DNA of 64,000 bases from an uncultured delta proteobacterium. Lineage in GTDB: Bacteria > Myxococcota_A > Polyangia > Fen-1088. The stretch lies in the NCBI GenBank assembly GCA_963796685.1, contig CAWCMR010000025.1:448001-512000 (forward strand), in the 5' to 3' direction. Within the stretch, counting starts at the first letter, position 1, and every line of letters starts with the position of its first letter. The translations under genes and the position numbers were made by a program. A model generated the notes under the pieces. It ran no database searches and was not told the DNA's origin. It worked only from the letters and a program-made list of their open reading frames with translations. Below, piece after piece: positions 1-10,769 of the stretch.

Positions 1-623
1 CCGGGTTGCAGGCCGTGGCCACGGCCAAGCGCTTGGGCGCGGTGGTCTGGGTTTCCGACGTTCGCCCCGTGGTGAAAGAGCAGGTCGAATCCCTGGGTGG
101 CAAGTTCATCGATTTGCCGGTGCAAGCGTCGCGAGAGTCGCAGGAGTCAGGCGAAGGTCAGGGCGGCTACGCCAAGGAAATGAGCAAGGAGTTCCTGGGC
201 CGCCAGCAAGCCATCATCAAGGAGCACATCGCCAGCGCCGACGCCGTCATCACGACTGCGCTCGTTCCCGGCAAGCCCGCGCCACGGCTGCTCACCGCCG
301 AGATGGTGCAAGCCATGCGGCCCGGCTCGGTGGTCGTGGATCTCGCCGCCGAGCAAGGCGGCAACTGCGAGCTCACGGTGGCCAATCAAGAGGTCGTCAG
401 GCACCGGGTGATCATCCTCGGCCACACCAACCTGCCCTCGACCATGCCCCACGACGCCAGCACGCTGTACGCGCGCAACGTTCTGGAGCTGGCCTTGCTG
501 GTCTGGAAGGGCGGCAAGCTCACCCTCGATCTGAACGACGAGATTATCCAGGGCGTCTTGCTCACGCACGACGGACAGATCACCCACGGCCCCACCGCCG
601 CAGCGGCCAAGGCGGCCCCATGA
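1..623 (+). CDS. pntA: NAD(P) transhydrogenase alpha subunit part 1 (domain I, NAD(H)-binding); 5' end lies outside the window
   Basis: GLQAVATAKRLGA, DVRP, GGYAK, ADAVITTALVPGKPAP, DLAAEQGGNC motifs; the frame is open from the window edge. Confidence 0.95.
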   Translation, partial: GLQAVATAKRLGAVVWVSDVRPVVKEQVESLGGKFIDLPVQASRESQESGEGQGGYAKEMSKEFLGRQQAIIKEHIASADAVITTALVPGKPAPRLLTAEMVQAMRPGSVVVDLAAEQGGNCELTVANQEVVRHRVIILGHTNLPSTMPHDASTLYARNVLELALLVWKGGKLTLDLNDEIIQGVLLTHDGQITHGPTAAAAKAAP

Positions 624-904
624 CCGGCGGCCTGCTCGTCTCGCTCTATCTGTTCACCCTGGCTGGCTTTCTCGGTCTCGATGTGATTCGCAAGGTTCCG
701 CCCACCCTGTACGGCGCCCTGGCCGCCGTCCTCGGCGCGGCGGCGGCCCTCTCCGTGGCCGCGGCCATCGCGGGCGCGATGGCGGGTGGTGAAAATTCCG
801 CCACGCTCTTGAGCACGATGGCCGCCGCCGTGGGCGCGGCCGGGGTGGTCGCCGGACTGGGGCGCGCCAAACGCATGCTCCGCCGAGGAGGCGCCAAACG
901 ATGA
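620..904 (+). CDS. Degenerate transhydrogenase alpha part 2 (membrane, 3-TM) paralogue
   Basis: LYLFTLAGFLGLDVIRKVPPTL matches the alpha2 N-terminus, but the HTPLMSxxNA motif is replaced by YGALAAVLGA; ATGA overlaps on both sides. Confidence 0.8.
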   Translation: MTGGLLVSLYLFTLAGFLGLDVIRKVPPTLYGALAAVLGAAAALSVAAAIAGAMAGGENSATLLSTMAAAVGAAGVVAGLGRAKRMLRRGGAKR

Positions 905-2178
905 CGGGCGAAAGCACGGTGCCTTCCGTCCTCGTCAGCCTGCGCGCCTATGCTGTTCCGTCTCTCTACATCGCCTCGGCCATCTTCTTCATCCTCGGCC
1001 TCAAGGCCATGTGCAAGGTGCGCGGGGCCGGCCGAGGGACGACCTGGCTTGCCACGGGATTCGTCTTGGCTCTGGCCGGCCAGGCCCTGGAGGTCGCGGG
1101 GCGCGACCCGACCCTGGCCCTGGTCGGCGTGAGCGCCGGTGCCGCCGTCGGATGGCTGCTCGGCCGGCGCACGCGAGTCGCATTCGGCCGTGGGTTTGGG
1201 CCCTTGCTGGCCGGCGCGGGTGGGGTGGCCTCCACCCTGGTTGCGGTGGCTGCGTTTTTTCGCGGCGAGGATTGGCCGCTCGCTGGCGCGCTCGCGCTCG
1301 CGGGAGGTTTGCGCGGAGCCGTGCTCGGGCTTGCCGTGTTCGCCGGGGTCTTCGCCCTCGTGCTCGCGGGCCTGGCTGCCTTCGGCCCGGCGGCGCGCGC
1401 CTCGGGCCAACCCGCGGCCGTGGCGCTGTCGGCGTCGGCCTCGGGTCTGGCGACGGCGGCGTTGGGTGTTGCCTTCGGCAACCCCATCGTGGTCACCGTC
1501 GGCGGGCTGGTTGCGACGGCGGCCTGGAGCTTGGCCGGGCTCGTGGCGCAGGCGCTCGGCCACAAACCCTCCGAGATCGTGCTTGGATCGAGTCACAAGA
1601 CGAGCCAGGCGCGCGACGAATACGACAACGTCCAAGCCTGCGGGTCGGAAGAAGCGGCCATGGTCTTGGAAAACGCCGGCAAGGTCGTGGTGGTCCCTGG
1701 CTACGGCATGGCCGTGGCGCAGGCCCAGCACGCGCTCCAGGAGGTCGCCAAGATGCTCGAACAGCGCGGGGCCAAGGTCCTCTACGCGATTCACCCCACC
1801 GCGGGACGGGTTCCCGGCCACATGAACATCCTGCTCGACGAGGCCAACGTTCCCGCCGCGCAGCTTGTGGATTGGCAAGCCGCCAACGCCGAGCTGGCCG
1901 ATGCCGATGTCGCCCTGGTGGTAGGCGCCAACGACATCGTGAACCCCGCCGCCGAGAACGATCCCGGCAGCGCCGTGTTCGGCATGCCCCTCCTCGACGT
2001 GGCCCGGGCGCGCACCGTCTTCGTCATCAAGCGCAGCCTGCGTCCGGGGAGCGCGGGCGTGAAGAACGCGCTCTTCGAGCGCAGCCACGTCACCATGGTC
2101 TTCGGCGACGCCAAGAAGGTCCTGCAGGCCATCGGCGCCGAGCTCAAGGCCCAGCTTCCCAAAGCGGCGGCGGCGTAG
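901..2178 (+). CDS. Transhydrogenase beta-subunit paralogue with degenerate membrane domain and intact domain III
   Basis: C-terminal VVPGYGMAVAQAQH, HPTAGRVPGHMN, GANDIVNPAA, GMP, KRS, FGDAK are conserved; the N-terminal TM region is Ala/Gly-rich and lacks the channel motifs. Confidence 0.85.
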   Translation: MTGESTVPSVLVSLRAYAVPSLYIASAIFFILGLKAMCKVRGAGRGTTWLATGFVLALAGQALEVAGRDPTLALVGVSAGAAVGWLLGRRTRVAFGRGFGPLLAGAGGVASTLVAVAAFFRGEDWPLAGALALAGGLRGAVLGLAVFAGVFALVLAGLAAFGPAARASGQPAAVALSASASGLATAALGVAFGNPIVVTVGGLVATAAWSLAGLVAQALGHKPSEIVLGSSHKTSQARDEYDNVQACGSEEAAMVLENAGKVVVVPGYGMAVAQAQHALQEVAKMLEQRGAKVLYAIHPTAGRVPGHMNILLDEANVPAAQLVDWQAANAELADADVALVVGANDIVNPAAENDPGSAVFGMPLLDVARARTVFVIKRSLRPGSAGVKNALFERSHVTMVFGDAKKVLQAIGAELKAQLPKAAAA

Positions 2179-2180
2179 CC

Positions 2181-2492
2181 ATGGACAGCGGGCTCATTCT
2201 CTGGACCGTGATGATGTTCGTGCTGGCGGCGTTCGTCGGCCATCACGTCATTCACGGAGTTCCTCCCCTGCTGCACACGCCCCTCATGTCCGCGACCAAC
2301 GCCATTTCCGCCATCTCGGTGGTAGGCGCCATCGTAGTGGCCGGCTCGCACTACGAGAGCGTGCGCACCATCCTCGGTGTCACCGCGGTGGCCGCCGCCA
2401 TGTGCAACGTGGTGGGCGGCTTTCTCATCACCGAGCGCATGCTCAAGATGTTCAAGGGCGGTCGCACCGACCCGAAAGACAAAGGCCACTAG
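2181..2492 (+). CDS. pntA: NAD(P) transhydrogenase alpha subunit part 2 (canonical)
   Basis: ATG at 2181 inside the listed ORF 1011..2492; VPPLLHTPLMSATNAISA and NVVGGFLITERMLKMF. Confidence 0.93.
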   Translation: MDSGLILWTVMMFVLAAFVGHHVIHGVPPLLHTPLMSATNAISAISVVGAIVVAGSHYESVRTILGVTAVAAAMCNVVGGFLITERMLKMFKGGRTDPKDKGH

Positions 2493-2494
2493 CC

Positions 2495-3886
2495 ATGTCG
2501 CCCGAGCAAATCATCGAGATCGCCTATTTCGTCGCGGCGGTCCTGTTCATCCTGGGCCTCAAGCTGCTGGCATCGCCCAGCACCTCGCGCCGGGGCATGC
2601 ACCTGGCCGAGATCGGCATGGTGGTGGCCATCGCCGGCACGCTGCTCGATCACCACATCCTGACCTACACGTGGATCGTCACGGGCGCGGTCATCGGCAC
2701 GGTGGCGGGCGTGATCATCGCGGTGTGGACGCCCATGACCGCCATGCCGCAACGAACGGCGCTTTCGCACGCCTTCGGCGCCGCCGCTGCCGCGCTGGTC
2801 GGGATCTCGCACTTCTATTCCGAAGGCGCGCATCTCGAGGCCGGCACCATGGTCGCCCTGGGCATCGAGGTCCTGCTCGGCAGCCTCACTTTCACGGGCA
2901 GCATGATCGCCTTTTCCAAGCTGCAGGGCTGGTTGCCCGGCATGCCCATGACCTTCAAGGGCCAGAACATCTTCAACATGTCGCTCCTGGCGGGCCTCGT
3001 CACGGCCACGGTTTGGGTGATCGTCAATCCGCAGACGAGCTGGCTCTTCTACGCCGTGGTGGCGTTGGCGCTGGTGTTCGGCGTGCTCTTCGTCATTCCC
3101 ATCGGCGCGGCCGACATGCCGGTGGTGATCGCCATCCTCAATTCCTATGCCGGTCTCGCCGGCGCCGCGACCGGCTTCGCGCTCGACAACAAGATCCTCG
3201 TCATCGCCGGCACCCTCGACGGCGCCTCGGGCCTCATCCTGTCCATCATCATGTGCAAGGCCATGAATCGCTCCATCACCAACGTTCTGTTCGGTGCCTT
3301 CGGCAAACCGCCCGAGGCCGGCGCCGATACCGGCGTGAAAGGCAACATCCGCGCCATCGGCGCCGATCAAGCGGCCGACCTCTTGGCCGCCAGCGTGAGC
3401 GTGGTCGTGATCCCGGGCTACGGTATGGCCGTATCGCAAGCCCAGCACGCGGTCAAGGAGCTCGCCGACGCGCTCGGCGAACGCGGTATCGACGTCCGGT
3501 ACGCGGTTCACCCGGTGGCCGGGCGCATGCCCGGGCACATGAATGTGCTGCTCGCCGAGGCGGGCGTCCCCTACGACCAACTCTTCGACATGGATCACAT
3601 CAACGACGACTTTCCCCGCGTCGACGTGGCCATCGTGATCGGGGCCAACGACGTGGTCAATCCCGCGGCTCGCAACAACAAGTCGAGCCCGATCTATGGC
3701 ATGCCCATCCTCAACGTCGACCAGGCCAAGTCCGTGCTCGTGCTCAAGCGCTCCATGGCCACCGGATTCGCCGGCATCGAAAACGAGCTCTTCTACATGC
3801 CCAATTGCATGATGGTGTTCGGCGACGCCCGCAAGACCGTGGGCGAGCTCTCATCGGCCCTCAAGCGCCAGGCCAAGGCCGCGTAG
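2495..3886 (+). CDS. pntB: NAD(P) transhydrogenase beta subunit (canonical)
   Basis: MTAMPQRTALSHAFG, GAADMPVVIAILNSYAG, MCKAMNRS, PGYGMAVSQAQH, HPVAGRMPGHMN, GANDVVNPAA. Confidence 0.95.
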   Translation: MSPEQIIEIAYFVAAVLFILGLKLLASPSTSRRGMHLAEIGMVVAIAGTLLDHHILTYTWIVTGAVIGTVAGVIIAVWTPMTAMPQRTALSHAFGAAAAALVGISHFYSEGAHLEAGTMVALGIEVLLGSLTFTGSMIAFSKLQGWLPGMPMTFKGQNIFNMSLLAGLVTATVWVIVNPQTSWLFYAVVALALVFGVLFVIPIGAADMPVVIAILNSYAGLAGAATGFALDNKILVIAGTLDGASGLILSIIMCKAMNRSITNVLFGAFGKPPEAGADTGVKGNIRAIGADQAADLLAASVSVVVIPGYGMAVSQAQHAVKELADALGERGIDVRYAVHPVAGRMPGHMNVLLAEAGVPYDQLFDMDHINDDFPRVDVAIVIGANDVVNPAARNNKSSPIYGMPILNVDQAKSVLVLKRSMATGFAGIENELFYMPNCMMVFGDARKTVGELSSALKRQAKAA

Positions 3887-4324: not shown

Positions 4325-6366
4325 ATGACCCCAGCGGCCCGAACGAATTGGTTCATGGTCCTGCTTGTCAGCGCCTCGATGGGCGTGGTCGCGTGCGGAC
4401 AGGACGCTCCTTCATCCGCGCGCCCTCGCGATGCTGCCGCTGGAGGTGCGGCCGGCGGGTCCTCGGGCGGCAACAGCGGCGAAGTGGGAGGTTCGGGGGC
4501 AGCTCGGGCCGCGCCGGTGCGGGCGGCGCAGCCGGCAGCGGAGGTGCCTCGAGCGGCTCGGGCGGTGGCGCGGGAGGCGTCGGCGGCAGTGCCGGCTCGG
4601 GAGGTGCGAGCGGCAGGGGCGGATCGGGTGGATCCGCGACGTCCAATGGCGGATCGAGCGGTGCCGGCGGATCGGCTGGCAGCTCGGGCGGTGCGAGCGG
4701 CTCCGGTGGCTCGAGCGGAGGCCGCGATGCGGCCGCCGATCTCGCCAAGTCGGATGGCAGCGCGCCGAATCGCTTCGACACGGCCCCGGACCTGGCTGGG
4801 CGAGATACACCCGGCGCGCCCGACTTGGCGGGAACCGATGCGGCCTGTCCGGACGGGCAGGCGTTGTGTGGCGCCTCTTGCGTCGACATCACCACGACCG
4901 CTCACTGTGGCGGATGCACCATCGTCTGCGGCGCGAACCAGGCCTGCATCGCCGGCGCGTGTGTGGAAGGCGGCAGCACCAGCGGCGACGGTTGCACGAG
5001 CAACCTTGCCAGCAACCTGACCCTGCAACAGATCGCCGTGTACCAGACGGTCAAGATCCCGGTCATGAAGGACGGCGCCGAGGTCGCGGCCGCCTCGCGC
5101 AACGCCGGCGTGATCCAGGGGAAGAGCGCGCTCTTCCGGGTCTTCGTGACCCTGGGCAGCGGCTGGGTCGCGCGCGATCTCGCCGCCCGCCTGACGGTGA
5201 CGCCATCCGATGGGCAAGCGGTGCAGTACTATTCGAAGAAGACCCTCAGCGCTTCGTCGGTCGAAAACGACCTCAAGACGACCTTCCAGATCTTCGTTCC
5301 AGCGAGCGCCATGGCCGGCTCGCTTCGCTATTCCGTCGAGGTTGACGAGTGCGCCGACCAGTCGGGCACCGCCGGACAAGCCCGTTTCCCGGCCAGCGGC
5401 GACATCGACCTCGGCGTGAAGACCACGGGTGGCCTCAAGATCAAGGTCATCCCGCTAGAGTTCAACTCGCTCTTGCCCGACACCTCGCCGACTGCTCTGG
5501 CGGTTTATGCCGACGAGATGGCGACCGAATATCCCATCAGCGACCTCTCGATCACCGTGGGTGACACGCTGACCGCGACCTCGCCCATCGACTGGAGCGG
5601 CATGCTGGATCAGGTTCGCGCCAAGCGCAGCGCCGACAAGCCGGCCGCCGACGTCTACTATTTCGGTCTGATCAAGCCCGCCGACACCCTTCGCACCTAC
5701 TGCCAGTCCAGTTGCACCACCGGAATCGGATTCGTCGTGACCAGCGCAACAGGCACCACGGCGGGTTCCGGCCGGGCCGCCGTGGGCGTCGGTTTCGCGG
5801 ACAAGACGTCCGCCCAGACCATGTCCCACGAGGTGGGCCACAACCACGGACGCAACCACGCGCCCTGCTCCACCGCCGGCACCATCACCGGGGTCGATCC
5901 CAACTTCCCCTACACCAACGGATCCATCGGAAGCTGGGGCTTCGACTACCGCACGCAGGCGCTGCTGGACCCGGCCAAGTACAGCGACATCATGGGCTAC
6001 TGCAACAACAAGTGGATGAGCGACTACACCTACAGCGGTATCGGCACGCGGGTGGCAGCGGTGAACGGCGTCGCCTTGGTCTACACGCCCGCCTACGCGC
6101 TCGCGCGCTGGCGAATCCTGCTGGTCGACGAGCGCGGGCCACGCTGGGGAATTCCCGTCACCCATGACGCCCCCGCCGAAGGCGAAGCCGAGTCGGCCAC
6201 GATTTACGACGCCACGGGCGCAGCGCTGGCCAGCGTTACGGTCTACCGCACGGACATCGCCGACGTGTCCGCCAGCATGTACATGGTTCCCGAGCCGCAG
6301 CCGAGCTGGTACGCCGTATCCGTGGCCGGCGAACCGCCCCTGCCCTTCGCGGCGCGGACGAAGTAG
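4325..6366 (+). CDS. Lipoprotein zinc metallopeptidase (M66-like) with Gly/Ser linker and Cys-rich module; one frameshift near 4495-4500
   Basis: Signal peptide with lipobox VVAC in one frame joins the Gly-rich frame at the G5 run near 4495; CxxGQxLCGxxCVD...HCGGC module; HEVGHNHGRNH zinc motif; SDIMGYC Met-turn. Confidence 0.75.
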
Positions 6367-6410
6367 TCACTCGGAGTCGTTACCCGAGGAGGCCTCGCCG
6401 CCGACAGCCG

Positions 6411-9108
6411 CTACGATTTCCGACGCCGGCGAAGCAACACCAGCCCCACCAGAACCATCGCCAGGTAGGGCGCGGACGAGGCTCGAGCGTGGCGAGGCGA
6501 TGGCGCAAAATCCACCCCCTTGTAGTTTCAAGTCTTCGGCGACCGGAGCGGCATCCTTGTTGGCCGGCATGGCAGCGTCGTCCTTCGTCACAGGGCTGGC
6601 GGTATCAGGGTTCGGCTCGGGCCCCGGTTCGGCGCCCGAAGCCAGCGTGTCGGCCAGAACATCCGGAGCGACGTCGGCCGCCGGCTCTTTGGTATCGGAC
6701 ACGTTTCCACCGTCGAGGAAGGGCAAGAGATCTTCCTTCTCCGTGTCCTCGGTCGCATCGAGGGCGACGACGGGGGCGGTGTCGTCGCCCACGCTCACCG
6801 CTGAATCGGGGCCCGAAAGAAGATCTTCGTTTGCAAGGGCATCGGCGCCCTCGGCATCGACGAACGCGGGGGGCGCGTCCTCGCCACCGAGATCCGGCGA
6901 TGGGGATTCGGCATCGACGCCTCCGTCGAGCCCAAGCGCGTTCGCCTGCACGGTCCAGGTGAAAACGGGCGGATCCGTTTCCACGTTTCCGGCCTGATCC
7001 GTCGCGCGCACGGTGAGGGTGTGCGAGCCGTCGCTCAACGTCGGCGTGGTGTAGCTCGCGGTGCACGACGTCCAGGTGGCTCCGCCATCGAGGCTGCACT
7101 CGTAGGTCACCGGGCTCTCGCTGTTCGTGAAGGTGAACGTGCCGGTGGCGGTGTTCGACGGATCGTCCGGATGGGTCGCGATGGTGGTGACCGGCGGAAC
7201 GGTGTCGACGAGCCAGGTGTGAGTCACCGGAGGATCCTCGACGTTGCTACTCAAATCCGTCGAACGGACCGACAGAGTGTGCGAGCCGTCGGCCAACGCG
7301 GGCGTGGTGTAATTCGCGGTGCAGGCCACCCAAGTGGTCCCTCCATCGAGGCTGCATTCGTAGGTCACCGGGCTCTCGCTGTTCGTGAAGGTGAAGGCGC
7401 CCGTCGCGCTCTTCGAATGATCCGGCGGGAAGGTCGCAATCGTGGTGACCGGCGCCGTGGTGGTCCCGCAGTAGGGGAAGAGGCTGGCGTTGCCATTGGT
7501 CAGGCCGGCGTGGCCGGCGGTGGCCCCGTTGGTACGGAAGTTGGCCATGGCCGACGCTGCCACGGTGGTCCTGCCGCCAAGTGCCCCCGCCGCCGAGAGC
7601 GAGGGCGTTCCACCCGAGACAGCGACATATCCGCCGCCGCCGCCGCCGCCAGGGCCCTCGACCTCGTTGGCGTTGATGCCGTTTGTGTGGTTCCCGCCGA
7701 TGCCACCGTTGGCGGTAACGGTGATGGTCGCGGGAAGGCCGCCCGAGTTGACAACCACCGTGCCGCCGCCGCCGCCGCCACCGCCTGCATCTCCGGCCGT
7801 ACCCGCAGCACCTGTCGAGCTACCGCCGACATCGCCGTCGGCGTGCAAGGCGCCACTTCCGGCCACCGCGCCGGCGATGATGAAGATCAAGCCACCGCCA
7901 CGTCCGCCGGGACCCGCCACGCCGTTGTTGCCGTCGCCCGCCCCGCCACCGCCGCCCATGAATAGGCGCGTTGCAGGATTGTTCGGCACCGGGTGCCCGC
8001 CAAGACCGCCGATCACGCGGCGATCATCACCGCCCCAAGCGGGCAGGCCCGGCGCCCCGGTGTTGGTCGTCGGATCGAGGTTGCCGCCGCCGTTGGCAGA
8101 GTACGAGTAGCCGCCACGACCACCGCCCTCGGAGTTGGCAAGTGTGGTGACTTCGAGGGGCCAGGCGAGGGTGCCACCCACGACGTCAGGCTCCACCAGC
8201 ATCACGCCGAGGCCGCCATTCCAACCGGCGGGATCTCCCGCATTGGCACCGCCGCCACCGCCGGCATTGTGCGAAGCCCCACCCCCACCGGCGTTGGCCG
8301 GCGCTCCCCGACCGTACTGCCCCGACGTGTACTCGGCTTGGTATCCGGCAATGCCTTCACCCTTTTCCGCGCCCGTGGTGGCATCCATCGAGCCGTACAC
8401 CACCGGCGTCAGCCCCGTGGTGTTTCGGCTGTCGTGCGCGACGCCGCCGCGGAAGCCCTTGGCCGAAACGTCGACGCTGCCGTCGAGCTGCAAGGTGGTC
8501 TCGGCGTGAACCGCGACCATGCCACCCGTGACCCCGTCCCATGCACGAGCGGTGATGGAATTCCCGGCGCCGACCGTCAGGGTCGTGTACTGCGGAACCC
8601 GGATGACTTGCGTCTTGCCACTGCGGCTGTAGCTGTTCTTGAGTCCGCACGCCAGCGTGATCACGCCGCCGGCAGCCACACTCTCGACCCCTGCGAATTC
8701 GTAGTTGCCGGCGCCTCCCAGGTTCGAGACTGCGCCATAGGTTGCGGTGTCCGTGGTGTCGATGGTGGCACCGGCCATTTGCACGATGAGCAGAAGGTCG
8801 CCTTGCGATACGGCGCTCAGGAAGTTCGCGTTGACGTCGGTCACCGTGATGGCGGTGTCTCCGGCCACGGGATCGGCAGCACCGGCGAGCTGCGCGTAGA
8901 GGTTCACGATCGTGTTTGCTCCGGGGACCACCAACGCGCCGTCGCGCCCCACCTCGGCTTGCCGGATGTGCGTCGCCCGCTGCGTGCTGCTCTCGAACAG
9001 CGAGGGACAACCCGCGCCGGCCACCATGAGAAAGGCGACGGGCACGAGCACGAAGCCCCGCGCCACTGCACGCCGCAATGCCATCTTGATGCGATTCCTG
9101 CGTTTCAT
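6411..9108 (-). CDS. Gly-rich surface adhesin (AgmC N-terminal-like) with two Ig-like repeats, acidic linker and MYXO-CTERM tail; frameshift near 6480
   Basis: ATG at 9108 overlaps the upstream TGA; GDLLLIVQMAGA, GNYE, VIRVPQY, AWDGVTGG motifs; removing one base near 6480 gives GGGFCAIASPRSSSSAPYLAMVLVGLVLLRRRRKS* (TAG at 6411-6413). Confidence 0.78.
6946..7460 (-). repeat. Two tandem ~85-aa Ig-like repeats inside the adhesin
   Basis: Duplicated PVTTIAT...FTFTNSESPVTYECSLDGG...DGSHTL.VR.TD...NVE.PP...TW; boundaries approximate. Confidence 0.85.
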
Positions 9109-10769
9109 GGTGTCCCCTCGCCATTCTTGCTGGTCTTTTCCAAGATCTTGAACTGCACGCGGCGGTTCTTCTGCCGACCCTCGGGGGTGTCGTTGTCCGC
9201 AACAGGCTCGTCCATGCCGTAGCCGCGCGACGTGAGGCGGCTGGCGTCCACGTTGCCCCGCTTGACCAGCCACTTGACCACGGCCGCGGCGCGCTTTTCG
9301 CTGAGCCGCTGGTTGTACTTCTTGCCGCCGCGGTTGTCGGTATGCCCCTGCACCTCGATCTTGAGGATCTCCGGGTGCTCCGAGAGCACCACCGCCACCT
9401 GGAAGAGCAAGTCGTCGCTGGCCTTCAAGATCACGGCGCTGCCGGTCTTGAACTGCACCTGTTCGAGGATCACGATCTCTTGATCGGTGACCCGCACCGA
9501 AGTCGGGCAGCCGTTCTTCTGCGGATCGGGATCGGGCTTGCCCTTCTCGTTGGGGCACGCGTCCACGTCGTCCCGGATCCCGTCGCCATCGGTGTCGGGG
9601 GGACAGCCGTTCTGGGTCGGGTCTTCGCTCTTCACACCCTTCAGATCCGGGCAGGCATCGTCCCTGTCGAGGATGCCGTCGCCATCGCGATCCGGCGGCG
9701 GCGGCGGACAACCGTTCTTCTCGGGATCGTCGCTCTTCACCCCCGGCTCGTCGGGACAGGCGTCGACCCTGTCGTAGATGCCATCTTTGTCGCGATCAGC
9801 TGGTGGAACCGGCTTCTTGCGCGGTCGCGGCGGTGGTGGTGGTGGCGGCGGCAGCGGGGCGTAGGCCACGCTGGCCACCGCACGCAGGGTCGGGGTGCCG
9901 AGACCGCGGGTCATGCCAGGGCCGGCTGCCAGGCCCAGCACCAAGGGGCCGAGCCGCAGCCGCGCGCCCACGAGCCCCTCCACGTTGGTGGTCGATTTGG
10001 TGAAGCGGTCGCTGCCCACCATCACTGTGGTGCCATAGACCTCGGGCCCAATCTGCAGCATGCGATCAGCGAGGAGCAACGCGGCGGCGGCCCCGAAGGT
10101 GAGCTCGGAGCCGAGGGCGGGGCTGAGAATGACGGAGGTCGAGCCGCCGCTCTTCTTTTGCACGTCGGCGCCGGCGTTGACCGCGTAGGCGAAGCTGTCA
10201 CCCTCGCCGGAGAGCACCAGCGCAGGCATGCCGTGAACCTCGCCCGAGCTGGTGTACTTGTCCTGCTTGCCCGTGGGAACGAACAGGTATCCCGACACGC
10301 TGAGGCTGGCCAGCGAGCGGTTCTCGCCCAGCAGGCGCACGCGCAGCCCCAGCCGCAGATCGCCGGCCGCGACCCCCGACGGGGAAGCGATATCCGACGG
10401 ATTTTGGCCATTCGTGTAGAGAGCGAGCGGCATGTCGGCGAAGCCCCACAAGCGATCCCAAAGCGCGATGCCCGCGGCAGCGTGGACGATCAGCTGATTC
10501 GACACCACGTTGCCGACCGCTTGGTCGTCGCTGGCGCGGTAGAGCACGAGCGGCTTGTAGGCGTAGTCGCCGAGGAGCATGAATCGGGGCGACAGAGCCC
10601 CTCCCGGATCCCCGCCTTGCACACCGAAGAACCTGTCCCCGGCGGGCGACGGCTGAAACCGATCCAGGGAGAAACCGCCCTGCGCGTGGGTCGTCGCGGC
10701 GATGGCAAGCACCGCGATGAGCGTGGAACCGGCCACGAGCCGCTTCGTCCTAGCGTTTGTCATATCCAC
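9105..10769 (-). CDS. OmpA-family outer-membrane protein (N-terminal barrel, Pro linker, TSP3 Ca-binding repeats, OmpA C-terminal domain)
   Basis: Signal peptide; repeated DxDxDGIxDxxDACP; GHTDNRG..YNQRLSEKRA, GYG, NRRVQF. Start may be ATG 10763. Confidence 0.9.
   Translation of the reverse strand: MDMTNARTKRLVAGSTLIAVLAIAATTHAQGGFSLDRFQPSPAGDRFFGVQGGDPGGALSPRFMLLGDYAYKPLVLYRASDDQAVGNVVSNQLIVHAAAGIALWDRLWGFADMPLALYTNGQNPSDIASPSGVAAGDLRLGLRVRLLGENRSLASLSVSGYLFVPTGKQDKYTSSGEVHGMPALVLSGEGDSFAYAVNAGADVQKKSGGSTSVILSPALGSELTFGAAAALLLADRMLQIGPEVYGTTVMVGSDRFTKSTTNVEGLVGARLRLGPLVLGLAAGPGMTRGLGTPTLRAVASVAYAPLPPPPPPPPRPRKKPVPPADRDKDGIYDRVDACPDEPGVKSDDPEKNGCPPPPPDRDGDGILDRDDACPDLKGVKSEDPTQNGCPPDTDGDGIRDDVDACPNEKGKPDPDPQKNGCPTSVRVTDQEIVILEQVQFKTGSAVILKASDDLLFQVAVVLSEHPEILKIEVQGHTDNRGGKKYNQRLSEKRAAAVVKWLVKRGNVDASRLTSRGYGMDEPVADNDTPEGRQKNRRVQFKILEKTSKNGEGTP

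Follow-up and report, generated by a model that had tools for sequence, protein, structure and literature searches.

A second transhydrogenase alpha2/beta pair, predicted to lack its proton channel yet kept under selection, in an operon of uncultured Polyangia

Introduction

Why would a bacterium keep, in one operon with a complete transhydrogenase, a second membrane pair of the same enzyme whose proton channel appears to be lost? The question is raised by a stretch of 64,000 nucleotides from an uncultured delta proteobacterium, a soil myxobacterium (GTDB lineage Myxococcota_A; Polyangia; Fen-1088; assembly GCA_963796685.1, contig CAWCMR010000025.1, positions 448,001 to 512,000), which we call the window. 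Its first 3,886 positions carry transhydrogenase genes in the order alpha1, alpha2', beta', alpha2, beta, the last two being a canonical pair and the primed two a degenerate one. An earlier note, made from the letters of the window, had proposed that the primed pair is dead as a channel and keeps its NADP(H)-binding domain.

The mechanism of transhydrogenase has been argued from two identical protomers working out of phase, and such a two-protomer mechanism is hard to test because mutating the gene alters both halves together. In Escherichia coli the two protomers of the enzyme are identical and form a symmetric dimer (PMC13635403). In the full-text literature searched, subscription journals excepted, and in 10.1101/2025.11.04.686620, no second or degenerate alpha2/beta pair is described. 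Comparing the primed pair with its relatives, we find it to be channel-dead, as far as its predicted structure tells, yet under purifying selection, and we ask how it arose and what it may do.

Results

Two membrane pairs in one coupled operon

Pfam assigns all five window genes to transhydrogenase families (Table 1). The canonical beta matches PNTB (PF02233) with 597 bits in a single stretch, residues 8–453, and it also matches the beta subunits of Thermus thermophilus (4o9u_B, E 1.4e-125) and E. coli (9l76_C, E 1.3e-113). Beta', whose whole gene spans 901–2178 and encodes 425 amino acids (aa), matches the same family with 311.2 bits (cut-off 31.7) in two stretches, the best being residues 168–411. 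The members of the two pairs are distant from one another, with 35% identity between beta' and beta (E 3e-70) and 37% between alpha2' and alpha2. In full, this alpha1 gene encodes 364 aa (locus L003, 66–1160).

ATGA overlaps form the alpha1/alpha2' (620–623) and alpha2'/beta' (901–904) junctions, and gaps of 2 nucleotides precede alpha2 (2181) and beta (2495). By these overlaps and this spacing, the five genes are predicted to be translationally coupled. The gene order, the tight coupling and the canonical character of the second pair are thus as the earlier note had described them. A scan for promoters and terminators returned no promoter-like site, and two terminator-like sites where 2.5 were expected. 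Among sequencing runs, a look for the sequence listed no RNA run that contains it, and only DNA runs in which its share is small.

Loss of the proton path in beta'

In the known enzymes, the hydrophilic pore is formed by His91, Asn222 and Asn458; of these, His91 is the protonatable one (PMC13635403). Asp213 and Arg265 form a salt bridge; the channel walls are transmembrane helices (TM) 3, 4, 9, 10, 13 and 14, with beta contributing TM6–14; and the central His can lie on alpha2 (His42 in Thermus) in place of beta (PMC5742237). We aligned beta, beta' and their orthologues with MAFFT, taking the numbering from E. coli PntB (NC_000913.3). Beta' of the window has His91 replaced by Ala, Asp213 by Gly, Asn222 by Ala and Arg265 by His, leaving Gly and His where the Asp213–Arg265 hinge pair would be, whereas the canonical beta retains all four residues. 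These are the substitutions that the earlier note had read by hand, and its figure of about 40 aa missing from the membrane part comes out at 38 aa, with the alignment gap at about E. coli 125–175.

A residue table of 26 beta' and 56 canonical PntB extends this to the whole beta' family. At position 91 no beta' has His, while the canonical proteins have His (37) or Asn (19). Asp213 is present in 0/26 beta', Asn222 in 2/26 (P0010 and P0020, the two deepest), the hinge residue Asn264 in 1/26 and Arg265 in 17/26, against 56/56 canonical PntB at each of these four positions. The conserved block TFTGS..AF.KL (E. coli Thr135, Ser139, Ala142, Lys145 and Leu146) is gapped in 25–26 of the 26 beta'; judged by its position in the alignment, the deleted block would be the channel helix TM10 together with the loop that follows it. 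Among the 43 near-invariant membrane positions of canonical PntB, 12 show retention of 80% or more across beta', and only 2 of its 19 conserved polar membrane-domain positions are retained.

We modelled beta' with AlphaFold2 from an alignment of 71 rows (mean predicted local distance difference test score, pLDDT, 85.6). The model has seven membrane helices, at 9–37, 43–64, 71–90, 100–121, 137–161, 170–192 and 195–218, against nine (TM6–14) in the beta of the family. Since exactly two helices are gone from the model, the N-out/C-in topology would be preserved. The polar residues that are conserved within beta' (Lys35, Arg41, Arg45, Glu64, Arg138 and Asn194) fall at helix ends or in loops, and a search of the 26 beta' for a conserved polar residue inside the modelled membrane helices found none. 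A polar channel at shifted positions, the outcome against which the earlier note had asked its reading to be checked, was rejected on this ground, and the loss of the channel stands.

A shortening of another kind occurs in P0127, a PntB of 385 aa with Asp213 and Asn222 from which part of the membrane domain is apparently missing.

Inverted conservation in alpha2'

Alpha2' has PPTLYGALAA where alpha2 has PPLLHTPLMSATNA; at the HTPLMS..NA site of TM3 the window alpha2' thus reads PPTLYGALAAVLGAA, with Tyr at the position of the central His, in line with the loss of HTPLMS that had been noted before. The HTPLMS motif occurs in 0/20 aligned alpha2' and in 11/11 canonical alpha2, and a His at its position survives in a minority of alpha2' (genomes G011, G012 and G008). 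The AlphaFold2 model of alpha2' has helices at 3–25, 28–55 and 60–92, at low confidence (pLDDT 68).

Mean pairwise identity among the 20 alpha2' is 0.68 in TM2, 0.77 in the loop that follows, 0.48 in TM3 and 0.41 in TM4; the corresponding values among the 11 canonical alpha2 are 0.74, 0.91, 0.94 and 0.90. In Thermus, TM2 is the dimer interface (PMC5742237). Conservation in alpha2' is therefore inverted, the channel helices appearing to be released from constraint and the dimer-interface helix not. This fits a retained capacity for dimerisation, and the partner is not specified by it. Asp20, conserved in 19/20 alpha2', is not a new feature, because canonical relatives carry Glu at the same spot.

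The end of TM2 also differs in the canonical alpha2 of these operons. Here (window 2235–2258) GHHV(I/V)H is found in 11/11 canonical alpha2 of five-gene operons, and alpha2' as well as both kin lineages described below have acidic and then basic residues, G-L/F-E/D-x-I-x-R/K, at the same site. This could be a co-adaptation at the dimer-interface helix.

A nucleotide-binding core without its coupling residues

Domain III of the beta' model, the NADP(H)-binding domain, superposes on bacterial domain III crystal structures with a root-mean-square deviation of 1.1–1.6 A at 53–55% identity (Foldseek ranks 4–13). Gly314, Gly316, Ala348, His354, Asp392, Lys424 and Arg425 are retained in all 26 beta' and His345 in 24, and for 39 of the 55 near-invariant canonical positions of the domain, 80% or more of the beta' have the canonical residue. 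Arg350 and Tyr315 contact the diphosphate of NADP and form a hydrogen bond with one another in the detached, occluded state (PMC9529548). Both are invariant in the 56 canonical PntB; Tyr315 is found in 19/26 beta' and Arg350 in 1/26, the window's own, the other 25 having Leu, Val, Cys or Ile. Likewise, Tyr or Phe at 431 is present in all 56 canonical proteins and in 2/26 beta', and the position of Ala360 is Asp in every beta'. Taken together, the beta' family appears to have kept the nucleotide-binding core and lost the residues linked to coupling and occlusion.

The earlier note had found every domain III motif of beta' intact. In the window genome this is roughly right, with Ser for Tyr431 and Asp for Ala360; across the family it does not hold, as the counts for Arg350, for the aromatic residue at 431 and, in some members, for Tyr315 make clear. 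Indeed, the impression of intactness is an accident of the window genome, because Arg350 is present in one family member of 26. The residue in question, Arg303 of the window beta' (codon CGG at 1807–1809), looks like a reversion, since Leu stands at this site in G002 and G010, its closest two relatives.

Purifying selection and gene integrity

The ratio of nonsynonymous to synonymous substitution rates (dN/dS) was calculated by the Nei–Gojobori method for 8 genome pairs (6 for alpha2', 5 for the parts of the canonical beta). It is 0.150–0.334 for the membrane part of beta', 0.122–0.184 for its domain III and 0.128–0.381 for alpha2'. The other genes of the operon give 0.083–0.193 (alpha1), 0.092–0.188 (canonical alpha2), 0.062–0.134 (beta, membrane part) and 0.069–0.100 (beta, domain III). 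These ratios place the primed genes under a purifying selection that is somewhat relaxed.

Beta' has an unbroken reading frame in 12/14 genomes and alpha2' likewise in 12/14, across six genera; of the metagenome contigs, the 8 that include the start of alpha2' all show this gene without interruption. Single-base frameshifts interrupt a primed gene in 3/14 genomes (alpha2' in G002, beta' in G001 and G004). Those of G004, three in beta', point to assembly error because alpha1 of the same genome also has frameshifts; this pattern and the few-contig nature of the assemblies suggest that the frameshifts are long-read errors. The sequence beyond the G001 frameshift is still 77–79% identical to that of genome G000.

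Distribution of the five-gene operon

We searched an alignment of the beta' membrane part against 89 genomes of the window's family and examined gene maps. Beta' is found in 14/89 genomes and 6/19 genera: 9 of 13 genomes in the window's genus, one genome in each of four genera, and one of three in the sixth. The remaining four genomes of the window's genus (74–94% complete) gave no pnt gene, and the other 13 genera (69 genomes) have canonical pnt operons only, or none. The canonical alpha2 and beta lie directly downstream of beta' in 14/14 genomes, and alpha1 and alpha2' lie upstream in 13/14. The exception, G099, has a cluster of alpha2', beta', alpha2 and beta without alpha1 (locus L148, contig G099:C33), with a Ser/Thr-kinase-like open reading frame (ORF) upstream on the opposite strand; its alpha1 (68% identical) is on a separate contig (L256, G099:C2), and its beta' is the most divergent seen, with AGLDALNL in loop D.

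Beyond the family, 400 other genomes sampled across the phylum gave no beta'-type match, every hit reaching at most 91 bits and covering the first 110–200 positions only. Among 329 genomes from the other families in this class, no beta' was found at E <= 1e-26, a threshold at which a protein as divergent as that of G099 (E 3.5e-15) would escape. Metagenome contigs added nine beta' loci, all close relatives of the window's genus and some duplicating the genomes; eight of the nine extend beyond beta', and alpha2 comes next in all eight. A profile search of 1.84 billion representatives yielded about nine beta'-type clusters at 50% identity, which carry the plain public name 'NAD(P) transhydrogenase subunit beta', with one member labelled Polyangia bacterium. 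A search for related loci on genome contigs gave canonical PntB only among the matches listed; a candidate for a full-length beta', L037, proved to be a canonical PntB and was rejected. Beta' is thus not a recent neutral duplicate, because it occurs in 14 genomes of 6 genera with dN/dS of 0.12–0.18 in domain III and 0.15–0.33 in the membrane part; the decay that the earlier note had asked to be checked is not borne out.

Three or more pnt lineages occur in the family (f1). One is like that of E. coli, its alpha being fused and about 490 aa long (G048, G022, G059, G089 and G024), another has three genes (G014 and G100), and the third is the five-gene type. G023 has an additional pnt locus, on contig C311.

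A chimeric operon with a probably older primed pair

Trees were built for PntB (75 rows), alpha1 (43 rows) and alpha2 (50 rows) with quick IQ-TREE searches. The 19 beta' in the PntB tree form one clade (Shimodaira–Hasegawa-like approximate likelihood-ratio test, SH-aLRT, 100), with a stem of length 0.84, nested in a clade of 27 rows (100) made up of ordinary PntB that come from other families in the class and the phylum. A separate clade (100) unites the 12 canonical beta from these operons, whose kin are G026, G027 and records that bear the labels Acidobacteriota and Planctomycetota. Constraining beta' and beta together costs 75 units of log-likelihood, with a p value of 0.0004 in the approximately unbiased (AU) test. 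A recent in-situ duplication of beta into beta' was rejected on the basis of the 35% identity, the separate clades and this AU result.

The partner genes follow the same division. In the alpha1 tree, which is free of long branches, alpha1 of the five-gene operons groups (SH-aLRT 98) with alpha1 of G396, G033, G246, G301 and G335, the kin of beta'. The canonical alpha2 groups (SH-aLRT 93) with alpha2 of the kin of the canonical beta, namely G026, G027 and the Acidobacteriota and Planctomycetota records. The alpha2 tree gives alpha2' no firm place, its branch being too long; a KVPPTL signature is common to alpha2' and to alpha2 of the lineage of beta' kin, and the canonical alpha2 and its kin have V(P/S)xLL.

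The operon is thus a chimera, because alpha1 and beta' share one set of kin and alpha2 and beta another. Most likely, alpha1, alpha2' and beta' descend from a resident three-gene operon, and the working alpha2/beta pair, of separate origin and either transferred or an old paralogue, came to lie behind it. The earlier note had taken the primed pair for an added extra. The shared kin of alpha1 and beta' suggest the reverse: it was probably the primed pair that was resident first.

Feature coordinates and neighbouring genes

The contig that carries the window measures 2.1 Mb and belongs to an assembly of 7.3 Mb, with a completeness of 88.6% and a contamination of 6.5%. Downstream of the operon are two ORFs of no apparent relation to it: a 672-aa Gly/Ser-rich ORF with a zinc-protease-like motif, HEVGHNHGRNH (4348–6366, plus strand), and a 1114-aa Gly-rich repeat ORF (6367–9711, minus strand).

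Table 1. Transhydrogenase genes and domains at the start of the window.
Feature	Position	Strand	Properties and basis
alpha1, 3' part (domain I, NAD(H)-binding)	3..623	+	AlaDh_PNT_C, E 2e-54; 5' end outside the window
alpha2'	620..904	+	94 aa; three-helix membrane subunit without HTPLMS; PNTB_4TM (PF12769) 43.4 bits, above the cut-off of 26.2
beta', membrane domain	901..1620	+	seven predicted helices; without His91, Asp213, Asn222, Asn264 and the TM10 motif
beta', domain III (NADP(H)-binding fold)	1621..2178	+	Foldseek, residue table, dN/dS
canonical alpha2	2181..2492	+	103 aa; HTPLMSATNA; PNTB_4TM 112.1 bits
canonical beta (PntB)	2495..3886	+	463 aa; channel, hinge and domain III residues all present

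Discussion

We propose, tentatively and at somewhat less than an even chance, that alpha2' and beta' form a pseudo-protomer that does not pump, uses the same alpha1 and combines with the pumping pair into one mixed complex. The alpha2'–beta' pair would assemble in the membrane as a module of three plus seven helices that cannot conduct protons, bind NADP(H) in its domain III and dock on the shared alpha1 dimer. In the resulting complex, (alpha1)2(alpha2 beta)(alpha2' beta'), one protomer would pump and the other would be a pseudo-protomer with a structural or gating role. Once the second pair had arrived, the cell may have become dependent on the primed partner, by constructive neutral evolution. 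We favour the mixed complex because a co-made uncoupled enzyme would be wasteful and because the membrane module, TM2 included, is still constrained.

That waste bears directly on the alternative that alpha1 and alpha2'–beta' form a separate, homodimeric and autonomous enzyme uncoupled from protons, which we think unlikely. The residues speak for it to some degree: the binding core of domain III is kept in nearly all 26 beta' and the coupling elements Asp213, Asn264 and Arg350 are lost together, a pattern that might suit an enzyme freed from proton coupling. Moreover, alpha1 is by its tree the native partner of beta', and the conservation of TM2 is equally compatible with a homodimer. However, all five genes appear to be co-translated, so such an enzyme would short-circuit the coupled one, dissipating the gradient that the pump builds up. 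Beta' is also never seen without the canonical pair (14/14 genomes and 8/8 informative contigs), and a role as an anchor alone leaves the selection on a ten-helix membrane module (dN/dS 0.15–0.38) unexplained. The membrane module is awkward also for the view of beta' as an NADP(H) sensor or decoy without catalysis, its domain III binding NADP(H) and either vying for the alpha1 dimer or resting on the membrane module, so that pump activity is tuned to the NADPH/NADP+ ratio: there is no obvious need in it for alpha2' and seven conserved membrane helices. To our knowledge a role of this kind has no precedent, and we hold it, too, to be an improbable explanation, though some points speak for it. 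KRS, GYG, His345 and Asp392 are kept, while Arg350 is lost in 25/26 beta' and the aromatic residue at 431 in 24/26; Arg350 is tied to the occluded state that is competent for hydride transfer (PMC9529548), and in the 2026 E. coli structures the alpha1 dimer is unable to engage both domains III simultaneously (PMC13635403).

There are two further explanations. The primed pair may be a slowly decaying, functionless remnant that persists since its deletion would disturb downstream expression, and the frameshifts in 3/14 genomes, the dN/dS values above those of the canonical genes and the retention of only 12/43 conserved membrane positions agree with this. But dN/dS of 0.12–0.38 lies far below 1 over divergences that extend to a dS of 1 and beyond, the frames are intact in 12/14 genomes for either gene over six genera, and alpha2' is intact in all eight contigs with its start. 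In addition, the model has lost exactly two helices, with the predicted topology preserved, and the G001 sequence past its frameshift has stayed 77–79% identical to that of G000. We therefore regard decay as highly improbable. Scarcely any probability attaches to the idea that the primed pair conducts a proton or another ion through a different, unrecognised path. Such a path might be read from the His at the HTPLMS position in alpha2' of G011, G012 and G008, the Asn222 kept in the two deepest beta' (P0010 and P0020) and the alpha2' Asp20 conserved in 19/20. Against it, the modelled beta' helices contain no conserved polar residue, the channel helix TM10 is deleted, and the Asp of alpha2' matches the Glu of canonical relatives.

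Several observations also count against the pseudo-protomer that we favour. The mixed complex is predicted from genes and sequence, as are its association and expression, and the constant co-occurrence with the canonical pair in 14/14 genomes may reflect one ancestral event. The canonical genes often have about half the dN/dS of the primed genes, the difference lying mainly in the membrane parts, and several pairs have dS above 1, so that those ratios are rough. In G001 and G002 the frameshifts may stem from real inactivation. The model of alpha2' is of low confidence, as its pLDDT indicates, and the loss of Arg350 may mean that domain III of beta' handles NADP(H) poorly (compare PMC9529548). 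With regard to the history, the trees come from quick searches, beta' sits on a long stem that enters the AU test, and the group tested was named post hoc, with the tree already seen.

If the pseudo-protomer exists, nature provides a ready-made asymmetric enzyme with one complete and one channel-less protomer, both selected. It would show whether one channel suffices and how the movements of domain III couple across the dimer, and it could reveal the contributions of Arg350, Asp213 and Asn264. A stronger form of the proposal, possible but on the unlikely side, is that the enzyme is obligately asymmetric, the resident pair having become a non-conducting pseudo-protomer that the pumping pair needs in order to assemble with the shared alpha1. 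There would then be one proton channel per dimer, an altered ratio of protons to hydride or a built-in NADP(H)-sensing half would be possible, and the apparent Arg350 reversion of the window would mark ongoing tuning of the non-conducting half. The operon would also clearly illustrate how two resident genes lost their function after a second pair arrived, yet were not discarded.

Dead paralogues under purifying selection beside an active counterpart are familiar from hetero-oligomers with a degenerate paralogous subunit, and the pattern here matches theirs. We know of no such case among transhydrogenases; the present one, limited to a few uncultured genera and known from its genes, is of interest for the alternating-site mechanism. 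A functional analogy, and no more, may exist with the soluble, energy-independent transhydrogenase SthA/UdhA, if alpha2'–beta' works uncoupled; that enzyme has an unrelated flavoprotein fold, is not membrane-bound and shows no sequence relation.

The closest known system is the three-polypeptide transhydrogenase of Thermus thermophilus (4O9U) and Rhodospirillum rubrum, with which the window operon shares the alpha1/alpha2/beta split, the domain order, the fold of domain III in beta' and the three helices of alpha2'. Unlike that enzyme, it has a second alpha2/beta pair, in which beta' has 7 rather than 9 helices and is without the central His, Asn222, the Asp213 hinge and TM10, and in which Arg350 is lost in 25/26 members. 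PntAB of E. coli (9L76 and related entries) belongs to the same family, and the window beta keeps its His91, Asp213, Asn222, Arg265 and Arg350; unlike the window operon, it has a fused alpha and a single beta.

More than one domain III per enzyme is, however, not confined to this operon. PntB proteins with tandem domains III (P0001, P0003, P0004, P0005, P0007, P0009, P0011 and P0014) resemble it in this respect and differ in that their extra domain is joined to a single canonical membrane domain and a second membrane module is lacking. In P0001, P0003, P0004, P0005, P0009, P0011 and P0014 there are two to four or more near-identical copies, in proteins such as P0001 (969 aa) and P0004 (845 aa); a number of the records are truncated at the N terminus. 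P0007 is a canonical PntB of 664 aa with a divergent C-terminal domain III, which reads HPLAGHMPGH with His replacing Arg350 and is the fused counterpart of the degenerate second domain III.

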